A stretch of DNA of 64,000 bases from Actinomycetota bacterium. Lineage in GTDB: Bacteria; Actinomycetota; Geothermincolia; Fen-727; Anoxymicrobiaceae. Below the pieces are notes generated by a model. That model did not search any database. It saw only the letters and a list, made by a program, of their open reading frames with translations, and was not told the DNA's origin. Position numbers and translations under genes: made by a program. Shown here piece by piece: positions 9,675 through 64,000 of this stretch; position 1 is the first letter of the stretch; each line of letters starts with the position of its first letter. The DNA lies in NCBI GenBank assembly GCA_043807425.1, contig JAZDFZ010000079.1:4301-68300 (forward strand), read 5' to 3'.

Positions 9675-9683
9675 GCGGGGGTC

Positions 9684-11836: not shown

Positions 11837-13259
<1,423 letters not shown>

Positions 13260-13262
13260 CAG

Positions 13263-13817
13263 ATGGACTCTATCATGGAGGACGCGGAGTACAGGTTCAT
13301 GAAGGCGGTGGACGTAACCGCCTCCGAGTTCGGCTCGATCAGGACCGGGAGGGCCTCGCCGGTGCTGCTCGAGCGGCTGCAGGTCAACTACTACGGTACG
13401 ATGACGCCGCTCAAGCAGATCTCCACCATCAGCGCGCCCGAGCCCCGGCTGCTGGTCATACAGCCTTACGACCGCACCAGCATCCAGGAGATAGAGAAGG
13501 CGATCACCCAGTCGGACCTCGGCTTCATGCCCTCCGACGACGGCGAGGTCATAAGGGTGCCCGTGCCCCAGCTCACAGAGGAGCGCCGCGTCGAGCTGAC
13601 CAGACTGGTGAAGCACCGCGCCGAGGAAGGCAGGGTGGCCATCCGCAACGTGCGCCGCGAGGCGGTGGAGGCCCTGCGCGGCGAGGAGAAGAAGGGCGAC
13701 GCCACCAAGGATGACCTCCACCGGGGAATGGAAGAGATCCAGAAGCTCACAGACAAGTACATCAGTGAGATAGACGAACTCGCCGAGAAGAAGGCGAAAG
13801 AGCTGATGGAGATATAG
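13263..13817 (+). CDS. frr: Ribosome recycling factor
   Basis: 184-aa ORF with the FGSIRTGRASPVLLERLQVNYYG and RNVRREA motifs. Confidence 0.96.
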   Translation: MDSIMEDAEYRFMKAVDVTASEFGSIRTGRASPVLLERLQVNYYGTMTPLKQISTISAPEPRLLVIQPYDRTSIQEIEKAITQSDLGFMPSDDGEVIRVPVPQLTEERRVELTRLVKHRAEEGRVAIRNVRREAVEALRGEEKKGDATKDDLHRGMEEIQKLTDKYISEIDELAEKKAKELMEI

Positions 13818-13819
13818 GC

Positions 13820-14707: not shown

Positions 14708-14708
14708 G

Positions 14709-21768: not shown

Positions 21769-22806
21769 AATGATTGTCTCGGCGGCGGCCTCGCTGCCCG
21801 CCACCTCCGAGTGGCGCACCGGGAGCAGCACCGGCTCTCCCGCCCCCGCCGCCCTGGCCAGCGCCCCCGTGGCGGCGGGTGAGTTGAACCAGGAAGCCCC
21901 CGTCCCCACTATCGACACGGCTCTCGCCGGCAGCCCCGGCGTCACCGGGAGACCCTCGACCACCTCCGAGAGCGGGACCCGCCGGCCTGGAGCGCGGGCC
22001 GCCGGTCTGAACAGCGCCTTCAGGAGCTCAGGAGGCTTCAGCTCCCGGGCCGAGTCGGTGGCGGGGTGGCCGGCCGGTTCCCGCGCGGGTGGGTCCAGCG
22101 CTACCGCCCGCCCCGCCGACCCTTCGGCCACCGCCTGCAACGCGAGCGCGCCGCCCAGGCCGATTCCCACAACGTCCGCGGGGATGCCCCCGGTCCTGCG
22201 GCCCAGCTCGTCCAGGGCCGCGCGGATGAGATCTTTCATGGCGGGATCCTTCAAGAGCCTGTCACCGCCCGGGCCGCCGTCCGGCTGGACGGCCAGGCAC
22301 GGATGGCCCGCCGCCGCAAGGCGAAAGACCAGCGGGCCGAGATCGGAGACGGGCCGACCGTAATCACCGAGGACCAGGACGGGGCTTCCCCCGCCGTCCC
22401 GGAAGACGGCCGGAGACCTCGTCCCGCCGACGTCCAGGTCGAAGCACTCGCCCACCTCGCCGTCAAAGCGGACCGGGTGGTAGGCGCCCCTGAAGACGAA
22501 CGAGGCCAGGACACCCTGTATCAGCACCGCGATCACCATGCCGGCGATGAGCAGTACCAGCGTCTCGAAGCCCTCCACGTCCGGGGAAGCAAAGTGCCCC
22601 CGCCCGCTGAAGTACCAGGCCGTAGAGCCCGCGAGGATCGCGCATCCCAGCGCGGCGCTCAGGGCCCGGCGGTCCGGGTATCCCGTCAGCGAGAAGCCGG
22701 AGAGCCGCTTCCAGGCGACCACCAGCTGGCAGGCTCCCAGGAAGAGGAGCACGAAGTAGGCCAGCATCCCCCACATGTCTCCCCTGAGGTGTAACAGCCT
22801 GCTCAT
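21745..22806 (-). CDS. Membrane-anchored alpha/beta-hydrolase-fold protein (nucleophile apparently absent)
   Basis: Start set at MSRLLHL (ATG 22806), giving a 4-nt overlap with the PAP2 gene. Four N-terminal TM helices precede a hydrolase-like core. That core reads VVGIGLGGALAL where GxSxG is expected. Confidence 0.55.
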   Translation of the reverse strand: MSRLLHLRGDMWGMLAYFVLLFLGACQLVVAWKRLSGFSLTGYPDRRALSAALGCAILAGSTAWYFSGRGHFASPDVEGFETLVLLIAGMVIAVLIQGVLASFVFRGAYHPVRFDGEVGECFDLDVGGTRSPAVFRDGGGSPVLVLGDYGRPVSDLGPLVFRLAAAGHPCLAVQPDGGPGGDRLLKDPAMKDLIRAALDELGRRTGGIPADVVGIGLGGALALQAVAEGSAGRAVALDPPAREPAGHPATDSARELKPPELLKALFRPAARAPGRRVPLSEVVEGLPVTPGLPARAVSIVGTGASWFNSPAATGALARAAGAGEPVLLPVRHSEVAGSEAAAETIISALGGTS

Positions 22807-23444
22807 CCGCTTTCCCTCTCCGGGCGCGCCGGAGGAGACTCCCAGGCGCACAGCACCCTGTACAGCGCCCTGTTGCAGGCGCGCGAGACCGGCGAGTAGA
22901 GGGGTTCGGCGGCCTTGAGCAGCAGCACGCAGCCCAGTCCCAGGACGGCGCCGGCCATGATGTCGGCCGGGTAGTGGACGCCGGCGGTCACCCGGCACAG
23001 ACCGACCAGGCATGCCAGGGCGAGCATGACGGCGCCCACCCCGCGGCGGTAGAGGAGGGTGGCGAACGCCAGGGTGAATGCCAGGGTCGCGGCGTTGGAT
23101 GGGAACGCCGAATCGGTGTTATGGTAGAACAGCATGCTGACCGGGTTGCTCGAGAAGGGCCGCGGCCTGAAGAACAGCCGGTTCATGACGTACAGGAGCA
23201 CCATCGACAGCACCACCGCGGCCAGCGCGCAGATGACACAGCGGAAGTCGCGTTCGCGCGAGTCGTGGTCGCGGGCGAACAGCACCAGGGAGAGCACAAT
23301 AAGGGTCATGATCACGGGGACGATGTGGTCGTCGGCGCCGGCCTTCACCGCGAGATCGAGCGGGCGCCAGGCACCGGCGGCGGAGTTGAAGAAGTGAAAC
23401 ACCGCCCGGTCGAGCCCGATGAAGAACTGGAAGATCCCGGCCAA
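22803..23444 (-). CDS. PAP2-superfamily membrane phosphatase-like protein (divergent motifs)
   Basis: 213-aa, 6-TM ORF. Motif C3 is retained (CRVTAGVHYPAD). C1 reads NRLFFRPRP (Lys to Asn) and C2 reads FPSNA instead of PSGH. Confidence 0.7.
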   Translation of the reverse strand: MAGIFQFFIGLDRAVFHFFNSAAGAWRPLDLAVKAGADDHIVPVIMTLIVLSLVLFARDHDSRERDFRCVICALAAVVLSMVLLYVMNRLFFRPRPFSSNPVSMLFYHNTDSAFPSNAATLAFTLAFATLLYRRGVGAVMLALACLVGLCRVTAGVHYPADIMAGAVLGLGCVLLLKAAEPLYSPVSRACNRALYRVLCAWESPPARPERESG

Positions 23445-24649: not shown

Positions 24650-26071
24650 TCAGACCGGCGGCTTTATCTCCAGCGGTGCGCCGAAGTTGCCCAGCGTGGC
24701 CTCGACCCGGCAGCGGAAGCCGCCTGTATCCTTCTGATCGAAGCCGGAGGCGTTCGCCGTGAACATGACGGGGTGGTGCTGCGCGTCGAGCAGGACCTCG
24801 ACGTCCGCCCTGGTCACGTCCGTGGTCTCGGCCTCGGGCAACAGGCTGGCGACGAACCCGGTGGCCCCGTGGAACGCCAGCTGCTCGCCCCCGGTACCCC
24901 CCGGCTGTCCGGTCACTACCCTGGCCCCGGAGGTGCTTCCCAGCAGGGAGCCGGGGCTGAAGTCCATGTCGGCGCTCGACTGCTCCCATGCACCGCCCCC
25001 GGAGAGCTCCCAGGTCTTACCTCCGGTTCGTATGTACTCGCGGTAAGGCGGCAGGCCCGGCAGTTCCCCGGCGTAGACGGCGTGGAATGCGCCGTCGCCC
25101 GTTACGTCGACGGCGACCTTCCCGGAGCGCGAGGCTCCGGACGGGGTCGTCACCGCCACCGTGGCGTCCATGTGGTAGGAGACCCCGGCCATCGCGGCCC
25201 GGGCGGCCCCCAGCGCCTTCTGTCCGGCGCCCGCGAAGTAACTCCCCCCCGCGACCACGTACACGAGAGCGACCAGGAGCATCGCACACGCGACGGCGGC
25301 CACCAGGTAGCGGGGGCTGGCGAGCGCCTTCAGGCGGGATAGCACGGCTTCCACATCGACCCCGGGGCGCCGGGCCCTTGTCTGGCGCGGCGCTACCGGC
25401 CTGCCTGCCCCCCGCGGGACGGGCTTCCTGAGTGGCGGTCGCGGGGCCGGCGCGAAGACGTCGGCCGGGCTGGGTCCGGGAGGCGGGAACGGGTTGCCTT
25501 GCGGGGCCGGCGCGGCGAAAGTCGGCTGGACCGGGTCGACCGCGAAGGCGGGCGTGTAGGCGGCCGAGGGATCGAGGCGTGGCGGCAGGCCCTCAGAGCG
25601 ACCCTGCTTTCCTCGAGAGCGCCGTCCGCCCCGCCTGCCTTTCCGGCGTTCGTCGCCGGATCCCGCGGGACGGTCGCCGTAGACGTCGCCCGGCGCCAGC
25701 GCTCCTCCGCCCGTCATGATGGCGAAGGCATCACCCGGGGCGGGGGCCGTATACGCGCCCGAGGTCCCACCGCCTATCTCGTATCCCCCGGAGGCGAACC
25801 CCCTGCCCTGCATGGTGTCGTCCAGGTCAGGCGGGGGCGGGAGGAGGTCGGCCTTGGCGGCCCACTGCGGCGGCTCGTCGAACCCGCTACCGCCGGGGCG
25901 CGTTTCACCGGGCGGAGCAGTCGATCCCTCGGGCTGCGCGGTGTCTGGGGCCGGGTCCGCGCTCGGTGCCTGGACGACGCCCATCAGGAAGCGGCACTTC
26001 ATGCAGTACTCGGCCCTGTCTGGGTTCAGGAACCCGCAGCGGGGGCAGTCCTTCAATCGATCATCCTCCAC
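24650..26071 (-). CDS. Zinc-ribbon / proline-rich / single-TM protein with extracytoplasmic beta-rich domain
   Basis: N-terminal CPRCGF...YCMKCRF zinc ribbon, an approximately 230-aa Pro/Gly/Ala-rich linker, one TM helix (YLVAAVACAMLLVALVYVVAGG) and an approximately 200-aa C-terminal domain. A GTG start at 26071 is assumed; the open frame continues to 26401. Confidence 0.6.
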   Translation of the reverse strand: MEDDRLKDCPRCGFLNPDRAEYCMKCRFLMGVVQAPSADPAPDTAQPEGSTAPPGETRPGGSGFDEPPQWAAKADLLPPPPDLDDTMQGRGFASGGYEIGGGTSGAYTAPAPGDAFAIMTGGGALAPGDVYGDRPAGSGDERRKGRRGGRRSRGKQGRSEGLPPRLDPSAAYTPAFAVDPVQPTFAAPAPQGNPFPPPGPSPADVFAPAPRPPLRKPVPRGAGRPVAPRQTRARRPGVDVEAVLSRLKALASPRYLVAAVACAMLLVALVYVVAGGSYFAGAGQKALGAARAAMAGVSYHMDATVAVTTPSGASRSGKVAVDVTGDGAFHAVYAGELPGLPPYREYIRTGGKTWELSGGGAWEQSSADMDFSPGSLLGSTSGARVVTGQPGGTGGEQLAFHGATGFVASLLPEAETTDVTRADVEVLLDAQHHPVMFTANASGFDQKDTGGFRCRVEATLGNFGAPLEIKPPV

Positions 26072-26198
26072 GTAGCCGGGCGTACAGACGCATGATATCA
26101 GAGGTCGGCGCGGTGGAGGTATGATGTCGCCTCCGTGGCGGCCCGTCCGTACCGTTGGATATACTTGCCTGTGTCGCGTTCGAGATTGGAGGGAAGGC

Positions 26199-27164
26199 AT
26201 GGGCTCACCGTGGGTGGAGCACGAGCAGATGGTCGTGACCGTGCGCTCGCTGTGCGAGACGGTGCGGGACGTGGTACGTCCGCACCTGGGCAGAGCGTCG
26301 GCGAAGGGACACGAGGGCTCCGGAGCCTCGGGCGACATGACCTTCAGCATCGACGAGGTGGCGGAGCGGGCCGTCGAGGGCGTCCTGGGCCAGCTGGACA
26401 ACGTGGCGTACTACTCGGAGGATCGGGGCCTGGTGCTGCCCGCAAACCCGGAGTACCTCCTCATCATCGACCCGATAGACGGCACCCGGCCCGCGGCGGC
26501 GGGGCTCGAGTCGTGCTGCGTCAGCGTGGCGGCGGCCCGGTACGACGGGGGTTCCACCGATGGGTTGACACTCGCCGACGTCTTCCTGGGCGTGGTCGGG
26601 GAGATAAAGAATGATGCCTTCTTCAGCGCTATCGCGGGTGGGGGCGCGCGGCTGGAGACGGGCGGTCGCCTGGTGCAACCGTCGCTGTCGGAGGGCACGG
26701 AGCTGTCGAGGATCTTCTGGACGGCCGGGTACCGGGGGCGGCCCGCCGAACCGCTGACCGCGGTCATGAGCGAGCTGATCGACCTCACCTCGGTCGACGG
26801 AGGCTACTTCGACCTGGGGAGCGCCGCGTTCAACATCACCCGGGTGGTGACCGGCCAGATGGACGCCTACGTGGACGTGGGACAGAGGATGGTGGAGGAG
26901 TCCGAGGGGATGAGGGACCTTTTCCTCCAGGTGGGGCACGGGGCGATATTGAACAACTTCGCCTACGACATAGCCGCCGCGGCCCTGGTGGCGAGCGAGG
27001 CCGGTGCCGCCGTCAGCGACGCCGGGGGGGAGCCCCTGGACCGCTACCCCCTGGTCCCGCGCGAGGGAGGTGGCCAGGTCTCCACGCTGGTCGCGTCGAA
27101 CGAGTCGCTCCACGGGCAGATCCTGGAGTACCTGGACCGTGGGATGGAGAGGCTGGGAGCGTAG
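26199..27164 (+). CDS. Inositol monophosphatase family protein
   Basis: Metal-binding motifs YYSEDRG and LLIIDPIDGTRPAAAG. The ATG at 26199 is preceded by GGAGGGAAGG; the tracked ORF begins at 26121. Confidence 0.85.
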   Translation: MGSPWVEHEQMVVTVRSLCETVRDVVRPHLGRASAKGHEGSGASGDMTFSIDEVAERAVEGVLGQLDNVAYYSEDRGLVLPANPEYLLIIDPIDGTRPAAAGLESCCVSVAAARYDGGSTDGLTLADVFLGVVGEIKNDAFFSAIAGGGARLETGGRLVQPSLSEGTELSRIFWTAGYRGRPAEPLTAVMSELIDLTSVDGGYFDLGSAAFNITRVVTGQMDAYVDVGQRMVEESEGMRDLFLQVGHGAILNNFAYDIAAAALVASEAGAAVSDAGGEPLDRYPLVPREGGGQVSTLVASNESLHGQILEYLDRGMERLGA

Positions 27165-52854: not shown

Positions 52855-53340
52855 TTGGCCGAGGATAACCTGGGGTACAGGTCACAGCTGATGACCTTGA
52901 TGAGGATAGCCCTCATCCTGGACACGGCGGGAGAGGGCGTGCTGGGCAAGGGCGCACCGGCCATGATGTACCAGGCCGGCCGCGACGCCGGGTGCTCCCA
53001 GGGATGCGCCCCCGGTGAAACGGGCGATATGGAGCAGGCGCTCTCCATGGTCCTGACCGAGGGGGACGAGGTCTGGGAGTTCGAGCGCTGGAGCGATCCC
53101 AGGCAGGACTCCCGCTGGATGGACGGCGGCGACCGCACATCCACCTGGATACTCTTCAGGCGCTGCCCGCTGCTGACCCTCTCGAGGAAGGCGGGCAGCA
53201 TTCCGGGAGGCCTCCTGTGCCAGGCCCTCCACGGCTACATGGCGGGCTCCATGGAGCGGGTGATGGGACGGCGCGTCGACATGAAGGTGGAGCACTGCGG
53301 GCCGAGGGCCTGCAAGGTGCTGGTGGAGCTGAGGACCTGA
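52855..53340 (+). CDS. V4R (4-vinyl reductase-like) domain protein
   Basis: 161-aa ORF with a C-terminal V4R-type pattern: RRCPLL...GGLLCQALHGYMAGSMERVMGRRVDMKVEHCGPRACKVLVEL. The TTG start lies 12 nt after the mltG stop. Its TGA overlaps the ATG of the next gene. Confidence 0.7.
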   Translation: MAEDNLGYRSQLMTLMRIALILDTAGEGVLGKGAPAMMYQAGRDAGCSQGCAPGETGDMEQALSMVLTEGDEVWEFERWSDPRQDSRWMDGGDRTSTWILFRRCPLLTLSRKAGSIPGGLLCQALHGYMAGSMERVMGRRVDMKVEHCGPRACKVLVELRT

Positions 53341-54188
53341 TGTACGTAGCAACGGCCGCGCTGTGCGCGTGCGGGGGGTGCCACTGCTCGCTGATGACGG
53401 TCGGCGAGCCGTTCATCGCCCTACTGGCGGACAACTCCATATCTTACTCGAGCCACTTAGTCGACCGCAGGACCATCGCACCGTCCGACGTGGTCCTGGT
53501 GACGGGCGGCATAAGGAACTCCGAGGAGCTGGAGATCGCCTCGGAGATAGGGCGGACCAGCCGCAAGGTGATAGCGGTGGGTTCCTGCGCGGTCTACGGG
53601 GGCATCCCCGGCGCGGGCGATATCCTCCCGGTCGAGGTCGAGGACGGCTCAGGACTGCCGGTGCTGCTGCCGCGGCTCGAGCCGCTGGACACGGCGATCA
53701 CGGTGGAGCTGTACGTCCCGGGGTGCCCGCCGCCACCCAACCTCATTTTCGAGGCCCTGAAGTCGGTGGTCGAGGGTTACTCGTCCATACGCTTCGACTC
53801 GACGGTCTGCTCGGACTGCCCCCGCCGGGTGCGGCGGGGCCCGGTGCGGCGCTGGACGCTTCACCCCGGGACCGGCGTCCACGGCGCCGACTGCCTTCTC
53901 TCGGGGGGCATGCTGTGCCTCGGCCCGGTGACCCGTGGAGGCTGCCGGGCTTCGTGCCCCGCCAGGGGAGCCGTCTGTGCGGGGTGCCGGGGACCTTCAG
54001 ACGCGGTCCTCTCCTCCCAGTTGCACTCCATGTACGCGGACATGGTCAAGTACGTGGGGTTGACCTGCGGTACGAGGGAGGACAAGGTCGCCAGAGAGAT
54101 GGCGGCCCTGCTGCGCTGGATGTACCTGTTTACCCGGAGGGACCCGGTGACCAGGGCCAGGATCAGGGAGAAGGTCGTCGATGGATAG
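53340..54188 (+). CDS. [NiFe]-hydrogenase small subunit, cytoplasmic group-3 (FrhG/MvhG-like) type
   Basis: No Tat signal. Proximal-cluster cysteines are LCACGGCHCS, VGSCAVYGG and PGCPPPP. The C-terminal 8-Cys region (CSDC...C..GGMLCLGPVTRGGC...CP..G..CAGCRGP) is typical of COG1941. The tracked ORF from 53217 overlaps the V4R gene out of frame. Confidence 0.8.
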   Translation: MYVATAALCACGGCHCSLMTVGEPFIALLADNSISYSSHLVDRRTIAPSDVVLVTGGIRNSEELEIASEIGRTSRKVIAVGSCAVYGGIPGAGDILPVEVEDGSGLPVLLPRLEPLDTAITVELYVPGCPPPPNLIFEALKSVVEGYSSIRFDSTVCSDCPRRVRRGPVRRWTLHPGTGVHGADCLLSGGMLCLGPVTRGGCRASCPARGAVCAGCRGPSDAVLSSQLHSMYADMVKYVGLTCGTREDKVAREMAALLRWMYLFTRRDPVTRARIREKVVDG

Positions 54189-55548
54189 CCCCGAGGAACT
54201 CCAGGAAACCGGCGAGTGGACCGGCCAGAAGGTCCGTATCTACCCCGTGACCCGCATCCAGGGCAGGGCCGACATCGAGGTGTTCTTCACCCCACACCAG
54301 AAGCCACGCGGGGCCCGCTTCAGGGCTCTGGAATACCGCGGATTCGAGGAGATGGTACCCGGGATGCCCGCGTTGCGGGTGCCCTCCGTGCTGTCCCGCC
54401 TGTGCGGTCCGTGCGGACTGACCCACCAGCTGCTCTCCTGCCTCGTGATCGAGCGCGCGCTGGACGTGGAGGTCCCGGAGGCGGCCACATCCTTCCGCGA
54501 GCTGATCTCCTGGTTGTTCCTTGCCCAGAGCCACCTGCTGACCATGGTCTACTCGGTCTTGCCGGATTACGCGCTTCCCATGTCCGATGTGTCGGTGCGT
54601 AACATAGCCGGCATATACTCCGTTGACCGGGAGGGCGTGTCCAGGCTGCTCGCGGCCCTGACGGCGTTCACGCGGGCCATCAGCGCGGTGGCCGGCCTGC
54701 CGGCGCATCCGCCGGTGGTGGTGCCCGGGGGGACTTCCTACCTGCCGGCCGCGGAGGGCTTGCACAGGGTATCCGAGATGCTCGCCGAGGGCAGGGAAGA
54801 CATCGCCGAGACCCTCCGCCTGGTGGAGATGCTGACGAAGCGCAGCTCCAGGATGATCGACCCGGGTCCACCACTGAAGGGCTTCTACGTCACTACCAGC
54901 GCCGGCGGCTTCGCCGACATCAACGGAGACTCCGTGACCATCTCCCCGTTCGATGGCGAAGAGCGACGGGTGGTAGACCCCGACTCCTTCCTCGATATGC
55001 TGGACAAGAGGCCCGTCGACTGGTCCTACCTGGTGCCGGTGGCGATTCTGCAGGGTGAGCCGTGCCTGGTGGGGCCCATGGCGCGGGTCAACCTGGGTTT
55101 CAGCCCGGAGGCGGGATGGGCGTGCGAGGAGCGCGCACGGATCCTGGAGGAGTGGGGCGCGCCCATGGACAGCGAGCTGCTCTTCTTCACGGCGCTGGCC
55201 CTGGAGGTCATCTGGGCCTGGGAGAACGCGTCGCGGCTCCTCGAGGGGGGGACCATCTCCGGGACCGACTCGTGCTCGGTGCCCTCGATGTCGGAGTCGG
55301 GCGCGGTGGCGGTGCTGGAGACGCCCCGGGGCACGGCCCTCCACTGGCTGGCGATGGACAGGGGAGGGGCGGTCGCGGAGTACCGAGTGGTAAGCTCGCT
55401 GCAGCTCAACCAGGCGCTGCTCGACGACCACCTCACCTCGGTGGCGCTCAGCGAGGTCAGCGGCCTGGAGATAAGTGACGCCACTTCCCAGCGGCTGCAG
55501 TTCGCGGTGCGCTCATTCCTGCCGTGTGTCTCCTGTGGGACACACTAG
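54181..55548 (+). CDS. [NiFe]-hydrogenase large subunit-like protein (variant proton-gate residue, no C-terminal extension)
   Basis: L1 motif RLCGPCGLTH (C75, C78), ETPRGTALHW, and L2 motif PCVSCGTH (C449, C452), which ends exactly at the stop codon. The N-terminal motif reads PVTRIQGR where RIEGH is canonical. Overlaps the small-subunit gene by 8 nt. Confidence 0.8.
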   Translation: MDSPEELQETGEWTGQKVRIYPVTRIQGRADIEVFFTPHQKPRGARFRALEYRGFEEMVPGMPALRVPSVLSRLCGPCGLTHQLLSCLVIERALDVEVPEAATSFRELISWLFLAQSHLLTMVYSVLPDYALPMSDVSVRNIAGIYSVDREGVSRLLAALTAFTRAISAVAGLPAHPPVVVPGGTSYLPAAEGLHRVSEMLAEGREDIAETLRLVEMLTKRSSRMIDPGPPLKGFYVTTSAGGFADINGDSVTISPFDGEERRVVDPDSFLDMLDKRPVDWSYLVPVAILQGEPCLVGPMARVNLGFSPEAGWACEERARILEEWGAPMDSELLFFTALALEVIWAWENASRLLEGGTISGTDSCSVPSMSESGAVAVLETPRGTALHWLAMDRGGAVAEYRVVSSLQLNQALLDDHLTSVALSEVSGLEISDATSQRLQFAVRSFLPCVSCGTH

Positions 55549-55560
55549 GAGGACAGGCGG

Positions 55561-55836
55561 ATGCCACACATACCGGACATAAAGGTGATAAAGGAGCGCT
55601 GCGTAGCCTGCGGTGACTGCATCACGCTATGCCCCCAGAGTGGAGAGGACTCTACCTCTCCCGTGCTGGACATGGGAGAGGGGACGGTCTCCGTGCTGAA
55701 CCATGAGGCGTGCATAGCCTGTTACACCTGCGTGGAGTACTGCCGCGCTGCGGCCATCCACATCGTCCAGGAAGTCTCCGGGCACGAGGGGCAGCCTGAC
55801 CTGTACCTGACCCGCCCCGTGAACAGGATAGTCTGA
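55561..55836 (+). CDS. 2x[4Fe-4S] ferredoxin-domain protein
   Basis: 91-aa ORF with CVACGDCITLCP and CIACYTCVEYC motifs. Starts 12 nt after the large-subunit stop. Confidence 0.8.
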   Translation: MPHIPDIKVIKERCVACGDCITLCPQSGEDSTSPVLDMGEGTVSVLNHEACIACYTCVEYCRAAAIHIVQEVSGHEGQPDLYLTRPVNRIV

Positions 55837-56070: not shown

Positions 56071-56125
56071 GGGCAAGGGCCCGATCGCGGGGGGGATTCG
56101 ATTGAACGGTTCGCGAGAAGACAGG

Positions 56126-56473
56126 ATGTCGGAGATTCTGCGGGACTTGCGGGCGGACAGTCCCGGCGTCGAGGCCGCCGTACTGGTGAGCTCCGACGCC
56201 ATGCCGCTCGCCTCGGAGCTCGGCGATTCAATGGACGAGGAGCTCCTGAGCGCGATGGCTTCGTCGCTGGTGGCCTCTGGGGAGAGGGTTGCCCGCGACC
56301 TGTCGCGGGGAAGCCTCGACCAGGTCTACCTTCGGGGCGCCGAAGGCGACCTGGTGGTGGTGAGGGTAAACGACGACGCCTTGCTGGCGTGCGTGGTCAA
56401 CAACCAGGCCAGGATGGGAATGACCCTGCTCGAGGTCAATCGCTGTGCCGCGAGGCTATCGGAGATCATTTAG
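56126..56473 (+). CDS. Roadblock/LC7 (MglB/CvnB-like) domain protein 1
   Basis: MSEILRDLRADSPGVEAAVLVSSDAMPLAS...LVVVRVNDDALLACVV fits the Robl_LC7 alpha-beta-alpha pattern. The open frame starts at TTG 56102; ATG 56126 was chosen. Confidence 0.75.
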   Translation: MSEILRDLRADSPGVEAAVLVSSDAMPLASELGDSMDEELLSAMASSLVASGERVARDLSRGSLDQVYLRGAEGDLVVVRVNDDALLACVVNNQARMGMTLLEVNRCAARLSEII

Positions 56474-56642
56474 ACGGCCTCCGGACGCGAGAGGTAGCAG
56501 GAGCGCTGTGATAGAATTAGCGTGTAAAACGGTATACGTGAGTGCCGCTGGCGATGCCTATGCGAGGGTATGACATGGGGATTGTTCGTCGGTGTTCGCG
56601 TATCCGAGCGGTCCCGATCGACGAGGCCGGGAGGTAGCCGGC

Positions 56643-57041
56643 TTGGACGGTTCTCAGCAGAGCGACCTCCACGAGGCGCTGAAGCGCCTCATAGAGAAGT
56701 CCCAGGACATAGACGCCGCGGCGGTTGTGAGTATGGACGGCTTTGTCATGGCCTCGGTCCTGCCCGCCGGGTACGAGGAGGACCGCCTGGGCGCGATGTC
56801 GGCCGCCCTCCTCAGCCTGGGCGAGCGCACGGCGCAGGAGCTGGGCAGGGGAGAGCTCGCGCAGGTCTTCGTGGAAGGGACCAACGGTTACGTCTTCCTT
56901 CTGGCCGCCGGAGAGGACGCCGTACTCAACGCCATCGTGCGGCGTGGAAGCAAGCTCGGGCTGGTCCTCTATGACATTCGCAACGCGGCCAAGGAGATCG
57001 CCGCGATAATCGACGCGAACCTGCAGGTCGAGTACGAGTAG
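56643..57041 (+). CDS. Roadblock/LC7 (MglB/CvnB-like) domain protein 2
   Basis: LHEALKRLIEKSQDIDAAAVVSMDGFVMAS...GYVFLLAAGEDAVLNAIV. TTG 56643 has GGGAGG 8 nt upstream. The tracked ORF starts at GTG 56592. Confidence 0.75.
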   Translation: MDGSQQSDLHEALKRLIEKSQDIDAAAVVSMDGFVMASVLPAGYEEDRLGAMSAALLSLGERTAQELGRGELAQVFVEGTNGYVFLLAAGEDAVLNAIVRRGSKLGLVLYDIRNAAKEIAAIIDANLQVEYE

Positions 57042-57056
57042 TCAGGCAGGAACGGA

Positions 57057-60000
57057 ATGCCACTGAAGGGAAGCCTCAGAGATTTCAGCCTTCCCGACCT
57101 GTTTCAGCTGATTCACTTCGGGAAGAAGAACGGGACCCTCAACATCACCAATGGTGACGTGAAGGGCTACGTGTGCTTCCGTAACGGCAACGTCTTCTTC
57201 GCCACCCATAACTGGAAGCGCCCGCCTCTCGGCCAGCGCCTCGTCGAAGCGGGAATGGTCACCAGCGACCAGATCGAGGAGGCCCTGGACCTGCAGAAGG
57301 GCTCCAGCAAGGGTCAGCGCCTGGGTAACATCCTGGTCGAACTCGGCTACCTGTCCAGGGAATCCCTGGAGGTGTTCGTAGAGGAGCAGATCCGAGATGC
57401 GGTATTCCACCTGCTTCGCTGGACCGAGGGCGACTTCGACTTCGATCCCAACCAGATCTTTCCCGAGGAGGATATCGGCCTCTCCATGAGCACGGAGGAC
57501 CTCATCATGGAGGGGAGCCGGCGCCTGGACGAGTGGTTCCAGATCGAGAAGAAGGTTCCTTCGCTCGACTCCGTATTCCGCATGACGAAGATGCCGGGAA
57601 AGGAAGCCAGTGACATCAACCTGACCAGCGAGGAGTGGCTGGTCCTCTATCACGTCGACAGTGAGAGCACGGTCAGGGACATCATCGAGAAGTCAGGGCA
57701 GAGTGCGCTGGTGACATGCAAGGCGCTGTACGGGCTGGTGACGGCGGGGCTGGTGGAGCTGGTCACCGGAGAAGGGGCGGGGGTCCCGGCTGCGAGCGGT
57801 GCCCTGGAGGACGAGATAGAGAAGCTGGCGGAGTCCGGTGAGCCCGCCCCGGCCGCGCCCCAGGCCGCCTCCCAGGAGACCCGCGGCAGGAAGGCGCGCC
57901 GCAAGGCTCCCGCGCCCATCGAGGAGGAAGCCCCCCCCGCGGAGGTCTTTGAGACCGTCGGTGACTTCTCGGACGAGGACGTCAGCGTAGAGGTCGTCGG
58001 CGCCGGCGAGGAGGATGCCCGGAAGCGGCGCCGCAAGCCGAAACGGCGCGGTAAGAAGGCCGAGCCGGAGCCCGTGGCCGAGGAAACCGAGCCCGTGGCG
58101 GAGGAAGCCGAGCCGCCGGCGGAGACGGAGGAGGAGGCGCGCGAGCCTGCTCCCGTGGTCGAGGCCGGCGAGGAGCCCCCGGCGGAGGAGTCCCCGGCCG
58201 CCGTCGAGGAGGTCCCGGCCGAACCCGAGCCCGAGCCCCCGGAGGCCGCGCCCGAGGAGAAGCCTTCGGCTATCGTCCACGACGACGAGGTTATGCCGCT
58301 GCCCGAGGCAAAGGAGGAGGCACCGGCCCCGGGGCAGAGCCTGGTCGATTACTACAAGTCACTGGCCCTCAAGGATGCCACCGACACGGACCGGCTGGTC
58401 GCTTTCCAGGAGACCGAGGAGAGCATCGTCGCGCAGCAGGGGGCGGTCGACCAGGATCTCGAGCCGGGGTTCGTCTCGACGGTGGAGGAGGAGGTCCCGG
58501 ATTTCGAGGAGCCGGAGGATATCCCGCTGGAGTGGGCCGGCCACCTGGCGCGCATGAGGGGCGGGAAGAAGCTGGAGACCCCGAAGATTCTACAGCCCGC
58601 CGAGGAGGCTGAGCCCGCTGAGACCCCACCGGAGGCGGTCTCCGAGGCCGAGCCGCTCGCCGGGGGGGTCCCGGTCGAGCGGGAGAAGCTGGAGGAGCCT
58701 GTGGTGGCGGAGGAGACCCACCCGGGCGCCATGACCTACGAGCAGGAGCTGGAAGCCGCCGCCGCGGAGGAAGAGCCCCCGGCGGTGCCGCTCGTCGAGG
58801 AGGTCGGCGTGGCCTCGGGAGCCCCGTTGCCCTCCGGCGAGGACATGGAACGGATGCTCCAGGTGGAGCCGCAGCCAAGGGAGGAGATGAGCAGGGAGGA
58901 GCTACTCGCTTTCGACCAGCCCACATACCAGGCCCAGGCGAGGGAGACCGCGCCGGAGGTGGAACCGCTCCTCGAGGGCCCCGAGCCGGCGGTCGAACCG
59001 GTCGGCGCGGCGGAGGGACCCCGCGGCGGCATCCTCGGCCGGGTCCTGAAGTTCACGAAGGGCGCTCCGGCCGAGGACATCGAGGTGGTCCTCGAGCAGG
59101 GCGAGCCGATCGAGGCCTCGGTCGTCTCCGAGGAGCTGTCGGTGGCCGAGGACCTGGGCATAGAGGTCGGCGAGCCTGTTGCGGTGCAGGTGGAGACAGG
59201 CCCGGCCTTCGAGGTGGAGCTCGCCTCCGGCGAGGTGGCCGAGGAGCCCGTGATGGAACCGGTCATCGAGACCGCGGAGCTGATCACCGAGGCCGAGACC
59301 GCGGCAGCGATCGAGCTCGCGGAGCTCGAGAGCGCTGTGGAGGAGGTCGAGGCCGTAGAGAGCGTCATCGAGCCGGGTACGGTCGAGGTCGCGGCGGAAC
59401 CGGAGGAGGTGTTCGTCCTCGAGGAGCCTGAGACCGTGGCGATGATTGACGAGGAGGAGGTCGTTGCGCTCGAGCTCGAGATAGAAGCCACCGCGGTGGA
59501 GGGAGCGCAGGTGATAGCGCTCGACTCGGTCAGGTCGGCGGGCGCCGGTCAGGTGGAGGAGGCGTCGGTTCTCGACGAGATAGTGTTCGAGGAGCCGTCG
59601 GCCGCCGTGGAGGAATTGGCCGAGGCGTGGGAGGTCCCCGAGCTGGAGGAGGGAGCCGCGGTGACCCTCTCCGAGTCGCCCGAGGTCGCCGCCGTGGAGG
59701 CCCCTGCCTTCGAGGATGAGCTGGCGGAGCTCGAGCTCGCCGCGACGGGTGAGGAGGAGCCGCCCGCCGCGATAGCCGAGGAGGAGCCACCGGCGGCGGC
59801 GTTGGCTGTCGAAGCCACCGACGACGCATACGGTGGATTCGAGGACATCGAGATGCTTCGAGAGATCACGTCGTCGAAAACGGCTACGGCACCCCCTCCC
59901 GAAGAGGAGCCCGTCCCGCCCGAGGAGGAGCTTGCCCGGGAGGCCCGGCCGGAGTTCGAGCAAGAGCCTGTCGTGGCGTTCGACGTCGAGGAGGAGGAGG

Positions 60001-60272
60001 AGGAGGGCGGTCTGATGGGCTCGCTGAAGGTCAGCGGCAAGAGGGGCGCCGGGACGAGCCTCATCGACCTGGAGACCTTCGAGCTGGAGCAGGAACTGCT
60101 CGAACTGGCCGGCGGCGTTAAGCAGACTAAGCATCGCCTGCCCGTTACCGAGCGGGACAGCGGGGCCAAGAACAAGAAAGACAAGAAGGGACGCGGCGGC
60201 AAGGGCCGCGGGTCAAAAGAGGTGGACAAAGGGTCGGTTAAGAAGATTATTGACGACATGAAGAAGATGTAG
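57057..60272 (+). CDS. DUF4388 (PATAN-like) domain protein with giant acidic low-complexity region
   Basis: The N-terminus [49 protein letters not shown] is the DUF4388 signature. About 800 aa of Glu/Ala/Pro/Val-rich sequence follows, with basic patches and a Lys-rich C-terminus. Confidence 0.8.
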
Positions 60273-60287: not shown

Positions 60288-60830
60288 TTGGCGGAAGTCT
60301 ATAAGATCGTGGTGACAGGGCCGTTCGACTCGGGAAAGACGACGTTCATAGGCTCCATCAGCGAGATCGACGTCGTCTCTACCGAGAGGACGACGAGGGT
60401 CGGCGGAAAGCGGCACAGCACCACGGTTGCGATGGACTTCGGCCGGATAACCCTCCGCGAGGGCCGCGTGCTCTTCCTCTACGGAACCCCCGGCCAGGGC
60501 CGGTTCGACTTCATGTGGGAGATCCTCTCGGAGGGCATGCTCGGGTACGTCCTCCTGCTGGACGGCAGCCGACCCGACACCTTTGAAGAAGGCTTGCGCA
60601 TCCTTGACGCGTTCGAGCGCATCTCCGAGGCGCCCCACGTGGTAGCGCTGACCCGGCCTGAGGTGCCGGGCTCGCTTCGCGCTTCGGGTGCGGCCCGTCG
60701 CGTGCCCGCGCTGGAGGGGCACACGGTACTTGAGTGCGATGCGCGCAGGCTGAAGGACGTGAAGGACGTGCTGCTCGAGCTGCTGGAGGCGGTGCTGGCC
60801 AGGGCTGAGGCCCGGGCGCAGGCGGGCTAG
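60288..60830 (+). CDS. Small Ras-like GTPase of the COG2229/CvnD/MglA-related family
   Basis: P-loop KIVVTGPFDSGKTT, switch-I-like STTVAMDFG and G3 LYGTPGQGRF (Thr in place of the canonical Asp, as in MglA). No NKxD motif is present. TTG start after AGGAGGGGAGGGA. Confidence 0.75.
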   Translation: MAEVYKIVVTGPFDSGKTTFIGSISEIDVVSTERTTRVGGKRHSTTVAMDFGRITLREGRVLFLYGTPGQGRFDFMWEILSEGMLGYVLLLDGSRPDTFEEGLRILDAFERISEAPHVVALTRPEVPGSLRASGAARRVPALEGHTVLECDARRLKDVKDVLLELLEAVLARAEARAQAG

Positions 60831-60856: not shown

Positions 60857-61720
60857 ATGCACATCGATGGTAGCACGCGGCTGGTGGGGTTGATCGGCAA
60901 CCCGGTAGAGCACAGCCTCTCGCCGACCATCCACAACGCGGCGTTCGATTATCTCGGGATCAACTGGTGCTACGTGCCGCTACCCGTCGAGGAAGGCCGC
61001 CTCCTCGAGGCCGTCGAAGGCGTCAAAGCACTGCGCTTCTCCGGCGTGAACGTGACCATGCCCTTCAAGACCGAGGTGCTGGGGCTGCTGGACGAGGTCG
61101 CGATGTTCGCCGAGTCCGTAGGCGCGGTGAACACCATCCTGGTCGACAAGGGGAGGCTCATCGGCTACAACACCGACGGGCGCGGCTTCTACACCGCCCT
61201 GATCCGTGACCTGGACTACCAGGTCAAGGACAAACGGGTGCTGGTGCTCGGCGCCGGAGGCGCGTCGCGGAGCGTCACCGTCTCGCTGGCGCTGGCCGGC
61301 TGTACTTCGATCATGATAGTCAACAGGTCGCCCGAGCGCAGCAGACAGCTCGCCGATATAATCCTGAAGAGCGTGCCCGAGGTCGAGGTCAACTGGTTGT
61401 CGCCGGACGACAACTACGACATCGTGGTCGCGGAGTCGGACATCATCATAAACGCGACGCCACTCACGACCTTCAACGGCGCACTGCGGGTGCCGGTTTC
61501 GCTGCTCAACAAGAACCAGCTGGTCTGCGACCTGAACTACTCGCTGTACCAGCCGCCACTCCTGCAGGAAGCGGAGGCGCGGGGGGCAAGGGTCATGGAC
61601 GGCAAGGGCATGCTGCTCTACCAGGCCGCCGCCGCCTTCGAGATCTGGACAGGCCTGGACGCGCCGGTCGAGGTCATGCGCGTGGCACTGCTGAAGGCCC
61701 TGGAGCAGGCCCACATCTAG
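60857..61720 (+). CDS. aroE: Shikimate dehydrogenase
   Basis: LVGLIGNPVEHSLSPTIHNAAF, NVTMPFK, NTDG and the LGAGGASRSV NADP site. Confidence 0.94.
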   Translation: MHIDGSTRLVGLIGNPVEHSLSPTIHNAAFDYLGINWCYVPLPVEEGRLLEAVEGVKALRFSGVNVTMPFKTEVLGLLDEVAMFAESVGAVNTILVDKGRLIGYNTDGRGFYTALIRDLDYQVKDKRVLVLGAGGASRSVTVSLALAGCTSIMIVNRSPERSRQLADIILKSVPEVEVNWLSPDDNYDIVVAESDIIINATPLTTFNGALRVPVSLLNKNQLVCDLNYSLYQPPLLQEAEARGARVMDGKGMLLYQAAAAFEIWTGLDAPVEVMRVALLKALEQAHI

Positions 61721-61782
61721 TTGGACTTGGAGCATAGTTAGATCGATGTGTCCCGTGGATGGGACCACACGAGGGACGAGGG

Positions 61783-63468
61783 ATGGAACGACCGAGACAG
61801 GACCGCCTGGGAAGGCTCCTTCTGCAGAGTAACCTCATATCCGAGGAACAGCTTACAGAGGCGCTGGACGAGCACGGCTCGTCGGGCAAGTCCCTCGGCC
61901 GCGTACTGATCGACAAGGGGATGATAACCGAGGGCCAGCTGACATCCGTTCTCGCCGAGCAGATCGGCATCCGCTACACGGACCTCTCGACCCACCCCAT
62001 CGACCCGGGCGCGGCGACTCTCATCGACGCCAACCTTGCCAAGCGCTACACGGTGGTCCCAATCGACTTCGAGGACAACAAGCTGGTCGTAGCCATGGCG
62101 GACCCCACCAACGTATTCGCCCTGGACGACCTGCGCATCATGACCGGCATGGAGATCCTCCCGGTGGTGAGCACCAAGGACGACATCAACGCAACCATCG
62201 GCAGGTACCTGCACAGCACCGCCGACATGGAGGGCGCCCTCGACGACCTCCCGATGCTGGAGGAGCTCGAGGAGACGGAGGACGAGCTGGTGGAGGCGGC
62301 TGAAGAGGCCCCCATCGTCAAGTACGTCAACCTGATCATCAACGAGGCTGTCGGAGAGAACGCCAGCAACGTGCACATCGAGCCCGCCGAGAAGGACGTG
62401 CGGATCCGCTACCGGGTCGATGGCGTCCTCCACGAGATAAGGCGCTCTCCCAAGCGAATACACCCGGGCATCGTCTCCAGGGTCAAGATCCTGGCGAACC
62501 TGAACATCGCCGAGAGGCGCGTACCGCAGGACGGCCGCTTCGCCATGGACGCCAACGGCCGGTTGGTCGACATCCGCGTCGCGACGGTCCCCACGATCCA
62601 CGGCGAGAAGATCGTGCTGCGCATCCTGGACCGCATGCAGATCCTGATATCCCTTACCGACCTCGGCATGCTCGAGGGGCCGCTCAAGCTATTCAGCAAT
62701 TCGTTCAAGAAACCGTACGGCACGGTCGTTGTCACGGGACCCACCGGCTCGGGCAAGACCACCACCATGTATGCCGCACTGAGCGAGCTCAACAAGCGCG
62801 AGGTGAACGTTATCACTGTCGAGGACCCGGTGGAGTACCAGGTCAAGGGGCTCAACCAGGTCCACGTCAACACCAAGGTGGGCCTGACCTTCGCGGCGAC
62901 GTTGAGATCCATCCTTCGCTGCGACCCCGACATCGTGATGATCGGCGAGATCCGTGACGCCGAGAGCGCCAAGATGGCCATCGAGTCGGCGCTCACCGGC
63001 CACATGGTCCTCTGCACCCTCCACACAAACGACGCGCCGAGCGCTATAACGCGTATGGTCGAGATGGGGGTCGAGCCGTTCCTCATCGCCTCCGCGGTGG
63101 ACAGCGTGGTCAGCCAACGGCTGGCCCGAAGGCTCTGCACCCGATGCAGGAATGTGGCGGAGTACGACACGGAGTACCTGGAGAAGATCGGGTGCTCCAT
63201 CGAGGAAGGTGAGGAGGTCACGTTCTACAAGGCGGATCCCAAGGGTTGCGCTTTCTGCAACAACACGGGGTTCCGGGGGCGGATCGGCATATACGAGGTC
63301 TTCACCATGGACGAGGAGATAGAGCGCATGCTGGTCAAGCTCGCCACCTCCCGCGAACTGGGGGTGGCCGCCGAGCAGAGGGGGATGGTCCGTCTGAGGC
63401 AGGACGGCTTCACAAAGGTGAAGCAGGGCATCACCTCTATCGAAGAGATCCTGCGTGTTGTAATGTAG
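61783..63468 (+). CDS. pilB: Type IV pilus assembly ATPase PilB (GspE family)
   Basis: N-terminal MshEN/T2SSE_N domain (LGRLLLQSNLISEEQLTEAL), Walker A GPTGSGKTT, Asp box, Walker B IVMIGEIRD, His box and the tetracysteine CxxC...CxxC. The tracked ORF starts at 61759. Confidence 0.92.
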   Translation: MERPRQDRLGRLLLQSNLISEEQLTEALDEHGSSGKSLGRVLIDKGMITEGQLTSVLAEQIGIRYTDLSTHPIDPGAATLIDANLAKRYTVVPIDFEDNKLVVAMADPTNVFALDDLRIMTGMEILPVVSTKDDINATIGRYLHSTADMEGALDDLPMLEELEETEDELVEAAEEAPIVKYVNLIINEAVGENASNVHIEPAEKDVRIRYRVDGVLHEIRRSPKRIHPGIVSRVKILANLNIAERRVPQDGRFAMDANGRLVDIRVATVPTIHGEKIVLRILDRMQILISLTDLGMLEGPLKLFSNSFKKPYGTVVVTGPTGSGKTTTMYAALSELNKREVNVITVEDPVEYQVKGLNQVHVNTKVGLTFAATLRSILRCDPDIVMIGEIRDAESAKMAIESALTGHMVLCTLHTNDAPSAITRMVEMGVEPFLIASAVDSVVSQRLARRLCTRCRNVAEYDTEYLEKIGCSIEEGEEVTFYKADPKGCAFCNNTGFRGRIGIYEVFTMDEEIERMLVKLATSRELGVAAEQRGMVRLRQDGFTKVKQGITSIEEILRVVM

Positions 63469-63508
63469 TGTGGTTCCTTTAAAACCTGGTCCTGCTGGGG
63501 GTGTGATC

Positions 63509-64000
63509 GTGACACAGAGCGGTTTGAAACTGGACATCAACGACCTCCTGGAGGAGGTAATAAAGAGGGGGGCCTCCGACCTGCACATAACGGTCGGTGT
63601 TCCGCCCGTCCTGCGCATCAACGGGGTCCTGCAGCGGATGGACCTGCCCAAGCTCACGAGCAACAACACTCGCGAGATGGTCTACAGCATCCTCACCGCC
63701 CGCCAGCGGGAGACGCTGGAGACCAACCTCGAGTTCGACCTCTCCTACTCGGTCCCCGGTAGCGCCCGCTTCCGGGTCAACGCCTACTTCCAGCGCAACA
63801 GCGTAGGAGCCGCCTTCCGGATCATCCCCTACCGCATCAAGACTATTGAGGAGCTCGGCCTGCCACTTGTCATCAAGGAGTTCGCGCGGCTGCCCCGGGG
63901 CTTCGTGCTGGTCACGGGTCCCACGGGTCAGGGCAAGTCCACGACGCTGGCGGCGATCATGGACCTCATCAACTCGACGCGCGAGGAGCATATCATCACG
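63509..64000 (+). CDS. pilT: Twitching-motility ATPase PilT (5' part, truncated by the window end)
   Basis: My translation from GTG 63509 gives VTQSGLKLDINDLLEEVIKRGASDLHITVGVPPVLRINGVL...ARFRVNAYFQRNSVGAAFRII...VLVTGPTGQGKSTTLAAIMDLIN. This is the canonical PilT N-domain and Walker A. The frame stays open to position 64000. Confidence 0.88.
   Translation, partial: MTQSGLKLDINDLLEEVIKRGASDLHITVGVPPVLRINGVLQRMDLPKLTSNNTREMVYSILTARQRETLETNLEFDLSYSVPGSARFRVNAYFQRNSVGAAFRIIPYRIKTIEELGLPLVIKEFARLPRGFVLVTGPTGQGKSTTLAAIMDLINSTREEHIIT

Follow-up and report, generated by a model that had tools for sequence, protein, structure and literature searches.

The 64,000-nucleotide stretch of DNA analysed here (hereafter, the window), from an Actinomycetota bacterium of the Anoxymicrobiaceae, contains at positions 54181-55548 an open reading frame (ORF) that, judging from its sequence and its modelled fold, is a genuine homologue of the [NiFe]-hydrogenase large subunit and no chance ORF. 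In the encoded protein, the Glu regarded as the proton gate is replaced with Gln. As sequence comparisons indicate, this large subunit belongs to a small, actinobacteria-restricted, group-3-like lineage, and the trait conserved throughout the clade is the loss of the gate Glu and of the canopy Asp, not the gain of Gln. Purifying selection acts on the gene, which is not decaying. It is always the third gene of a cassette that also encodes a small subunit, a ferredoxin and a putative GTPase switch, and that lies upstream of type IV pilus genes. The reading that we prefer, with somewhat less than even confidence, is that a low-turnover, catalytically down-graded hydrogenase module serves here as an H2 or redox sensor for the GTPase switch, which would control the pili.

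A preliminary description of this DNA had noted the motif PVTRIQGR, with the CAG codon for Gln, the four Ni-Fe ligand Cys, and the end of the protein at the His of the C-terminal CxxCxxH motif. Translation of the plus strand bore this out: the motif occupies residues 22-29, C75 and C78 lie in RLCGPCGLTH, and C449 and C452 lie in LPCVSCGTH. His82 is also present, and His455 (CAC, 55543-55545) is followed by the stop codon TAG (55546-55548), so that there is no C-terminal extension. In HMMER alignments to solved structures, PVTRIQGR matches column for column PVTRIEGH of 7t2r_D, PLSRLEGH of 9sfi_g, PVTRVEGH of MvhA (5odc_F), and PLSRVEGH of HoxH (5xf9_D); the segment and the RxEGH motif are thus homologous, as the preliminary description had presupposed. 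The ORF matched PF00374 with an E-value of 5e-16 and 59 bits (cut-off 25.8). In a phmmer search of the PDB sequences, the top match was 7t2r_D, HydL of the bifurcating NiFe hydrogenase of Acetomicrobium mobile (E=1.6e-41), followed by 9sfi_g (a VhuA/FrhA-type chain), 5odc_F, and 5xf9_D. The AlphaFold2 model, computed from 40 sequences, has a mean predicted local distance difference test score (pLDDT) of 91 and superposes on MvhA, HoxH, and HydL with template modelling (TM) scores of 0.88-0.91. The protein thus has the fold and the family match of the PF00374 superfamily as well as its four metal-ligating Cys, and Gln27 at the site of the proton-gate Glu. As for the canopy, Arg383 of PRGxxxH is present and the Asp of DPCxxC is replaced with Leu447.

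A search of 5.8 billion protein clusters found 37 family members at 45-95% identity, after which the identity drops to 29%; the named members are Actinomycetota, Candidatus Anoxymicrobium or Anoxymicrobiaceae. A HMMER profile scan of 1.84 billion representatives at 50% identity found two core and three divergent members (P0040, P0043, and P0044), below which lies a continuum of ordinary group-3 enzymes from 267 bits down. To these were added 22 loci from GTDB species genomes and 24 from metagenomes of the Joint Genome Institute (JGI). In a neighbour-joining tree of 187 sequences, a 40-member core was nested in a 46-member clade of core and outer sequences with no intruders. The tree is crude, and its sister-group placement is not relied on; the sister in it is a group of clostridial enzymes with RISG[YF] at the gate motif, probably owing to long-branch attraction.

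We counted the residues, in the numbering of the window protein, in 39 non-identical core relatives, 11 members of the outer subclade, and 138 ordinary group-3-like representatives. At position 27, the site of the gate, the core has Gln in 25, Met in six, Thr and Gly in two each, and Arg, Asp, Pro, and Glu in one each; the outer members have Tyr, Phe, His, Ser, Cys, Met or Pro, and 124 of the 138 ordinary representatives have Glu. In 24 further metagenome loci, the site is occupied by Gln (20), Val, Glu, Gly, and Asp (one each). The absence of the proton-gate Glu that the preliminary description had pointed out therefore holds for the clade, since only one of the 39 core relatives has Glu; its view of Gln as a specific substitution is not supported, because the orthologues alternate at the site, which the description had itself named as a refutation. 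Since position 27 reads so many residues across the relatives, the conserved feature is the loss of the gate and not Gln. As to whether the Q/R substitution as a whole is conserved, Arg29 is (37/39, the other two having His) and Gln27 is not (25/39). Position 29 is variable in the outer subclade, and it is the His of RxEGH in 91 of 138 ordinary representatives. Besides Arg29, conservation in the core clade newly extends to Asp31 and Glu33 (37-38 of 39 for the three).

The change extends further than the gate, and this wider syndrome had not been seen in the preliminary description. At position 447, the Asp of DPCxxC is never found in the core, where Asn, Ser, Ile, Thr, Leu, Cys, and Gly occur, nor in the outer subclade (Ala in nine, Asn in one, Ser in one); it is therefore missing from all 50 clade members and present in 128 of the 138 ordinary representatives. 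The canopy Arg at position 383 (PRG) is retained in 33 of 39 core relatives and 130 of 138 ordinary representatives, and is lost from six core relatives and from all 11 outer members, which have Glu. C75, C78, C449, His82, and His388 are present in 39 of 39 core relatives, and C452 and H455 in 38, the exception being L011 (=P0040). The C-terminal tail is lacking in the core and outer sequences and is present in 112 of the 138 ordinary representatives. The second Cys of each ligand pair is the bridging ligand. This agrees with a remark on C579 in a study of Hyd-1 (PMC8020662). In nine of the 11 outer members, Cys78 is replaced with Asp (RICGxDSLFHQ), and in ten of 11, His388 is replaced with Tyr.

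These outer members form a sister subclade at 28-34% identity to the window protein (L015, L016, L026-L028, L030, and L031; P0043, P0044, P0066, and P0077) with its own signature: RICGxDSLFHQ, PEG for PRG, Tyr for His388, APC for DPC, and Gly at position 51. From these shared changes, its site looks remodelled rather than randomly decayed. The sequence L011:10001-11311 (40% identical) ends in ...VRALNSCMV, is without the C-terminal CxxCxxH, and has Ala for the PRG Arg; nevertheless, its locus retains the full cassette and all 12 Cys of the small subunit.

Loss of the gate residue was also seen elsewhere. Fourteen of the 138 ordinary group-3-like representatives (about 10%) are without the gate Glu, with motifs such as KVFGH (four), RIVGH (three), RVGGH, RVTGL, and RICGR (P0105, P0110, P0135, P0141, P0149, P0154, P0163, P0168, P0175, and P0187). 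In these, the DPCxxC Asp is retained, the PRG Arg is mostly so, and a short C-terminal tail is found in most. In addition, Bacillota, including clostridia (L017-L025, e.g., L024:10007-11416), have large subunits with P[VI]TRISG[YF], i.e., Ser at the gate position; these have a C-terminal tail, a strong PF00374 match (337 bits), a small subunit with the SSU_C domain, and adjoining genes for a HycI-type protease and HypF/HypD/HypE (in L024, the neighbours lie at 8679-16958). We considered the clostridial RISG[YF] enzymes as distant relatives of the clade and rejected this, as their tail, protease, and Hyp genes are those of ordinary-looking enzymes. E28 of Escherichia coli Hyd-1 has been called the 'universal proton gate', and the E28Q variant has been called proton-transfer defective (PMC8020662); as far as these alignments go, the gate is not universal in sequence space.

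One alternative to a sensor is that the window encodes a working ferredoxin-coupled cytoplasmic [NiFe]-hydrogenase, representing a new and minimal subtype of group 3 made up of a small subunit, a large subunit, and a ferredoxin, in which protons would travel by a different route, for example via water, Arg29 or the clade-specific Asp31 or Glu33, and for which the GTPase and pilus neighbours would be a historical accident. We regard this as possible but unlikely. An alternative proton pathway has reportedly been proposed in one paper. Apart from L011, every core member has the four Cys, His82, and His388; the PRG Arg is mostly kept there, and Arg29, Asp31, and Glu33 have become conserved; the Ser-type enzymes with their adjoining HycI and HypF/D/E, as well as the Glu-less ordinary representatives, agree with it, as do the strong purifying selection, the complete cluster relay, and the dedicated 2[4Fe-4S] ferredoxin described below. 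However, the gate residue is unconstrained and the canopy Asp is missing in every member. The sister subclade has the same cassette despite its replaced bridging Cys and Arg, and L011 retains the cassette without the C-terminal CxxC. Moreover, the six core members without the canopy Arg lack a residue that has been called essential for fast H2 oxidation in Hyd-1 (PMC8020662).

The state of the gene itself was examined by the ratio of nonsynonymous to synonymous substitution rates (dN/dS) against the 95% identical locus L004. The ratio is 0.098 for the large subunit, 0.070 for the small subunit, 0.041 for the V4R-like orf161, 0.106 for the ferredoxin, and 0.017-0.018 for the Roadblock genes (Roadblock 2, 0.017); for alaS and aroE it is 0.153 and 0.090, respectively. 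Three metagenome large subunits have frame breaks after 141, 141, and 213 residues (L056:8226-9559, L057:9703-11036, and L058:137-1485, respectively), and the similarity continues past the break, which may stem from a frameshift or an assembly error or mark a pseudogene. These contigs are what could be cited for the explanation that the gene is a decaying pseudogene or that Gln is a sequencing or assembly artefact. However, the ORF in the window is intact over its 455 residues and has a confident AlphaFold2 model, and independent assemblies at 95% and 82% identity, and many at about 50%, carry this Gln as well; together with the dN/dS of 0.098, this effectively refutes the explanation, which we consider extremely improbable. 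Among more distant relatives, however, the large subunit has diverged faster than the neighbouring genes: where its identity is 50% and then about 30%, alaS retains 70% and 53%, and Roadblock 2 retains 85% and 70%.

The Fe-S relay of the partner subunit and the ferredoxin have stayed intact. The preliminary description had credited the small subunit with a full three-cluster relay and had placed a ferredoxin gene after the large-subunit gene, and both statements held. The small subunit, for which the closest NCBIfam model is VhuG (140 bits, cut-off 450), has Cys at positions 11, 14, 83, 129, 157, 160, 185, 193, 202, 206, 213, and 216 in the pattern of three [4Fe-4S] clusters, and all 12 are invariant in 16 of 16 orthologues, including those of the outer subclade and L011, where the large subunit is missing Ni-Fe ligands. 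The ferredoxin gene has a GGAGG Shine-Dalgarno sequence directly after the large-subunit stop codon, and every related locus has the gene, L034 included, although there it had previously gone uncalled.

Such a pattern, with invariant Fe-S ligands while the Ni-Fe surroundings erode across the clade, would also be expected if the large subunit were a pseudo-hydrogenase without the Ni-Fe cofactor, which, like NuoD, would be a scaffold for Fe-S electron transfer or redox sensing and would handle electrons of ferredoxin and no H2. The missing C-terminal tail, the lack of maturation genes nearby, and the faster divergence of the large subunit than of alaS or Roadblock 2 point in the same direction. 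However, the conservation of the core Cys, His82, and His388 at 45-95% identity is hard to explain without a metal site, and the changes in the outer subclade (Cys to Asp, Arg to Glu, His to Tyr, and Asp to Ala) are themselves conserved. We therefore think this explanation improbable, though it deserves to be kept in mind.

The order of the cassette is orf161, small subunit, large subunit, ferredoxin, two Roadblock genes (three in the outer clade), a PatA_N/DUF4388 gene, and a Ras-like GTPase gene (Table 1). It is flanked by alaS-ruvX-mltG upstream and aroE-pilB-pilT-pilC downstream; in the longer loci, genes for a pilin and the prepilin peptidase (pilD) and pilM/O follow pilC. Wherever the flanks suffice, the same order was found: in the window, in 15 loci from genomes, in five of the outer clade, and in the metagenome contigs. 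It is kept even at 28-34% large-subunit identity. No clade member was found outside this cassette among the loci examined. The preliminary description had noted the absence of hyp and endopeptidase genes from the window, and Pfam scans of 65 ORFs agreed, giving only housekeeping genes (RNase HII, rpsB/tsf/pyrH/frr, dxr, ispG, proS, ruvCAB, queA/tgt, secDF, relA, hisS, aspS, and alaS) and cassette genes. In the 21 loci with scanned or called flanks, no Hdr, MvhD, diaphorase, FrhB, Hyp or protease genes were found alongside; this is unlike the clostridial case and speaks against a working hydrogenase. Nor did the genes called or scanned in the cassette loci include one for a histidine kinase. 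The stop codon of orf161 and the ATG of the small-subunit gene overlap by one base, and the genes of the two subunits overlap by 8 nt; the ferredoxin gene starts 12 nt after the large-subunit gene, and a 266-nt gap separates it from Roadblock 1. From Roadblock 2 to pilB, the intergenic spacing is 15-40 nt. This translational coupling or close packing of the genes counts in favour of the sensor reading. In a scan of 52.7-57.2 kb, no terminator-like sites and one antisense promoter-like match were found, which is the chance level, and the scan is uninformative.

Table 1. Features of the cassette and its downstream flank in the window (positions are those of the window)
Feature	Position	Strand	Evidence or remark
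V4R/Bet3-fold protein (orf161), first gene of the cassette	52855..53340	+	161 amino acids; fold-based
[NiFe]-hydrogenase small-subunit homologue	53340..54188	+	282 amino acids from the ATG at 53340; PF01058 7.5e-25
[NiFe]-hydrogenase large-subunit homologue	54181..55548	+	455 amino acids; PF00374, PDB match, AlphaFold2 model
CAG codon for Gln27, position of the proton-gate Glu	54259..54261	+	direct read; alignment to PVTRIEGH
2[4Fe-4S] ferredoxin	55561..55836	+	91 amino acids; Fer4 family matches; two CxxCxxCxxxC motifs
Roadblock/LC7 (MglB-type) protein 1	56102..56473	+	PF03259 2.8e-18; position conserved in all loci
Roadblock/LC7 (MglB-type) protein 2	56592..57041	+	PF03259 9.5e-17; 68-88% identical across the clade
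PATAN (PatA_N/DUF4388) protein	57057..60272	+	1071 amino acids; PF14332 1.4e-37
Ras/MglA/CvnD-like small GTPase	60288..60830	+	180 amino acids; PF03029 6e-15, weak Ras and TIGR00231 matches
aroE	60857-61720		between the GTPase gene and pilB
pilB (MshEN and T2SSE ATPase) and start of pilT	61759..64000	+	candidate output machinery

Two PF03259 proteins, one PF03029/Ras protein, and one PF14332 protein make up what, from its domains, is predicted to be an MglA/MglB-type switch with a PATAN protein. MglA and MglB are co-evolving pairs of a GTPase and its GTPase-activating protein (GAP), sometimes encoded near PATAN genes (PMC4316618). Both families have been linked to the control of pili: the motor of type IV pili is bound by PATAN regulators, and MglA promotes the formation of pili (10.1101/2021.06.11.447907, PMC7519303). 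In the window, the PATAN protein has at residues 57-111 a motif resembling the cyclic di-GMP-binding motif of MshEN (NF053729, 8e-16). Its N-terminal region of about 280 residues is conserved, with a weak match to MarR-like winged helix-turn-helix domains, and is followed by about 750 residues of acidic, Glu/Pro/Ala/Val-rich low-complexity sequence and a Lys-rich C-terminus.

The first gene of the cassette, orf161, gave no Pfam or NCBIfam match (for Pfam, even at E<=5). The profile of its orthologues gave only noise against the PDB sequences, and hhalign gave no significant match between its family and the L029 and L033 V4R proteins. However, its AlphaFold2 model (pLDDT 88.7) matched, with a Foldseek probability of 1.0 and a TM score of only about 0.5, the V4R-containing sensor domains of the phenol sensors PoxR/MopR/DmpR and the Bet3-family subunits of TRAPP. 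Among 115 relatives in the databases, none is named outside Actinomycetota, and many are named 'predicted hydrocarbon binding protein' by JGI. C104, C122, H126, H147, and C153 are invariant in 41 sequences. Judging from the fold with its modest TM score, the JGI name, and the motif, orf161 is probably V4R-like.

The GTPase has relatives of 54-57% identity that adjoin PatA_N genes in other lineages. In two Anaerolineae-type loci (L029:5235-10586 and L033:8192-14502), a PatA_N gene is followed by genes for a GTPase (54-55% identical), an alpha/beta hydrolase, a V4R protein (PF02830), and a hexapeptide transferase; a REC-GGDEF gene lies 60-1150 bp on, with a gene for a Shikimate_DH domain between in L033, and then come genes for large GAF/PAS proteins, one of which, in L029, has histidine-kinase domains. 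These neighbourhoods combine V4R, PATAN, GTPase, and cyclic di-GMP signalling genes, but neither has a hydrogenase, and V4R therefore accompanies the PatA_N-GTPase pair independently of the hydrogenase. In L032:7114-12719, where alaS is 45% identical, the order is alaS-ruvX-mltG-aroE-Roadblock (228 amino acids)-PatA_N (403 amino acids)-GTPase-(107 amino acids)-pilB-pilT, and no V4R, hydrogenase-like or ferredoxin genes were found in this locus. Since the module stands here beside pilB/pilT without a hydrogenase, the GTPase module belongs with the pilus genes; this arrangement may be the ancestral form of the linkage. The other four genes (V4R, the two subunits, and ferredoxin) look like a clade-specific addition to the module. 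In the clade, the hydrogenase-like genes stand between the V4R gene on one side and the Roadblock/PATAN/GTPase genes on the other. These arrangements in related genomes are circumstantial evidence for a functional coupling of the hydrogenase-like genes and the GTPase module.

If the hydrogenase-like module is a sensor of the GTPase switch, as we prefer to think, the V4R protein, the small and large subunits, and the ferredoxin would form a cytoplasmic sensing module and not an energy-yielding enzyme. In the core subclade, which keeps the four Cys, His82, and the PRG Arg, the Ni-Fe centre probably still binds and splits H2. Without the Glu relay and with the canopy disturbed, proton release and turnover would be slow, as in mutants with Glu changed to Gln. 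The partial pressure of H2 or the redox poise of ferredoxin would then show in the redox state that the Fe-S chain and the ferredoxin take. The V4R and Roadblock proteins, which belong to families of regulators of the guanine nucleotide exchange factor or GAP type, may pass this state to the MglA-like GTPase, and the GTPase and the PATAN protein may act on PilB/PilT/PilC and bias pilus-based motility or adhesion. A more far-reaching form of this proposal is that a hydrogenase has been turned into the input device of a eukaryote-like GTPase switch, in which sensing of H2 or ferredoxin would set the nucleotide state of the GTPase via Roadblock and PATAN proteins and thereby steer the type IV pili. 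This would amount to 'hydrogenotaxis' or redox-guided twitching or adhesion in anaerobic actinobacteria of the subsurface and sediments, and the sister subclade (Cys-Asp-Cys-Cys, Arg to Glu) would be a retuned version of the same sensor. We consider this larger picture doubtful as a whole.

Several points weigh against a sensor. The dedicated ferredoxin is equally compatible with a metabolic enzyme, and the 266-nt gap between the ferredoxin and Roadblock genes makes separate transcription units possible. Inheritance alone may have preserved the order of the cassette, since its carriers all come from one part of Actinomycetota and the alaS-ruvX-mltG...aroE block around it is widely syntenic. 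The known H2 sensors HoxC and HupV retain the gate Glu, and its loss is thus no hallmark of a sensor. With the full maturation set of the Ser-type clostridial enzymes and the 14 Glu-less sequences among the 138 ordinary representatives, hydrogenases apparently can do without the gate Glu. The lack of the C-terminal tail is weak evidence for a sensor, because 26 of the 138 ordinary representatives are also without it. The proposal of the preliminary description that the protein is sensor-like or a slow enzyme is still alive, but the argument for a sensor now comes mainly from the cassette, which lies beyond the gene that it had considered.

Whichever reading is correct, a natural lineage dispenses with the gate Glu and the canopy Asp under purifying selection. 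The series of variants, from Glu through Gln, Met, Gly, and others at the gate to the replacements of Cys with Asp and Arg with Glu, could be used as a probe of what the gate and the canopy are for. Should the module be a sensor, it would mark the first case in which H2 or redox sensing derives from group 3 and the first link of a hydrogenase to a Roadblock/small-GTPase switch; uncultured anaerobic Actinomycetota would then have a candidate mechanism for surface motility guided by H2. An active enzyme, in contrast, would be a minimal ferredoxin-coupled hydrogenase with a novel proton path. Annotation of metagenomes would count these genes as ordinary 'group 3', and this may overstate the capacity for H2 metabolism.

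Some other parts of the window are worth recording. A gene pair for a FixX-like 4Fe-4S ferredoxin (90 amino acids) and a FixC-like oxidoreductase dependent on flavin adenine dinucleotide (497 amino acids) lies on the minus strand at 2993-4755; the plus strand carries nearly all the other genes of the window. At 4972-5690 (plus strand), a small ORF and the gene for a PIN-domain protein after it resemble a toxin-antitoxin pair, and a XerC/D-type tyrosine recombinase is encoded at 8673-9674 (plus strand). Two ORFs on the minus strand, at 21745-23013 (422 amino acids) and 24650-26401 (583 amino acids), have a high G+C content at third codon positions but match no Pfam family. No gene was identified on the plus strand in these stretches, and the two may be spurious frames, given the G+C content of 66%, or novel genes.

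In the searchable literature, we found no published description of the clade or the cassette, which is no proof that none exists, and nothing relevant that links a hydrogenase to Roadblock, PATAN, V4R, Anoxymicrobium or Geothermincolia. Among known systems, the group 3 large subunits MvhA/VhuA (3c), HoxH (3d), and HydL are the best matches in sequence and fold and are similar in length (about 450 residues). They share with the window protein RxCGxCxxxH, PCxxCxxH, and PRGxxxH, as well as the small subunit with three [4Fe-4S] clusters. However, the identity to MvhA, HoxH, and HydL is only 24-26%, and the window protein lacks the RxEGH Glu, the DPC Asp, and the C-terminal tail. Furthermore, in place of MvhD/Hdr, HoxEFU, HydABC or FrhB, its partners are the V4R-like protein and a small ferredoxin. 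Membership in group 3c was rejected, as the large subunit scores 143 bits against the VhuA model (cut-off 800), the small subunit also falls short of VhuG (140 against 450), and MvhD/Hdr genes are lacking in the 21 loci. The scores against FrhA, ShyA, and HydA are far below the cut-offs, and the protein does not fall into groups 3a, 3b or 3d, since only the V4R-like protein and the 91-residue ferredoxin flank the structural genes.

Sensory hydrogenases have a precedent in group 2b and in the putative group 2c, which is putatively linked to diguanylate cyclases (PMC5037454). In its predicted way of working, the window protein comes closest to a regulatory hydrogenase. Like HoxBC/HupUV of group 2b and the putative 2c proteins, it has no cleavable extension, is set among signalling genes, and is predicted to have a low turnover. 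Unlike them, it is affiliated with group 3, and its neighbours are Roadblock, PATAN, and small GTPase genes, not a histidine kinase or GGDEF gene. Membership in group 2b was rejected, as the best matches are all group 3 and there is no histidine kinase partner, although the trait of lacking the extension is shared. With the engineered variants E28Q of E. coli Hyd-1 and E25Q of the D. fructosovorans enzyme, the protein shares Gln at the same position; in contrast to these mutants, the loss is natural and clade-wide, many residues occur at the site, and the canopy Asp is lost as well. The erosion of catalytic ligands with retention of the large-subunit fold and of an Fe-S partner is reminiscent of NuoD/Nqo4 of complex I, Fpo, and the Ehr-type proteins, and the large subunit gave weak matches to the NuoD and FpoD models. 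The descent of NuoD-type proteins from hydrogenases is the closest parallel in evolution. However, those proteins are membrane-bound relatives of group 4, whereas the window protein is a soluble relative of group 3 with four Cys. Finally, the Roadblock/LC7, GTPase (PF03029), and PATAN genes beside pilB/pilT/pilC resemble the MglA/MglB switch, the actinobacterial conservons (CvnA-D), and the PATAN pilus regulators. Unlike the conservons, the cassette has no CvnA-type histidine kinase, CvnC or receiver domain, and unlike both the MglA and the conservon systems, it has V4R, hydrogenase-like, and ferredoxin genes in the upstream input position.

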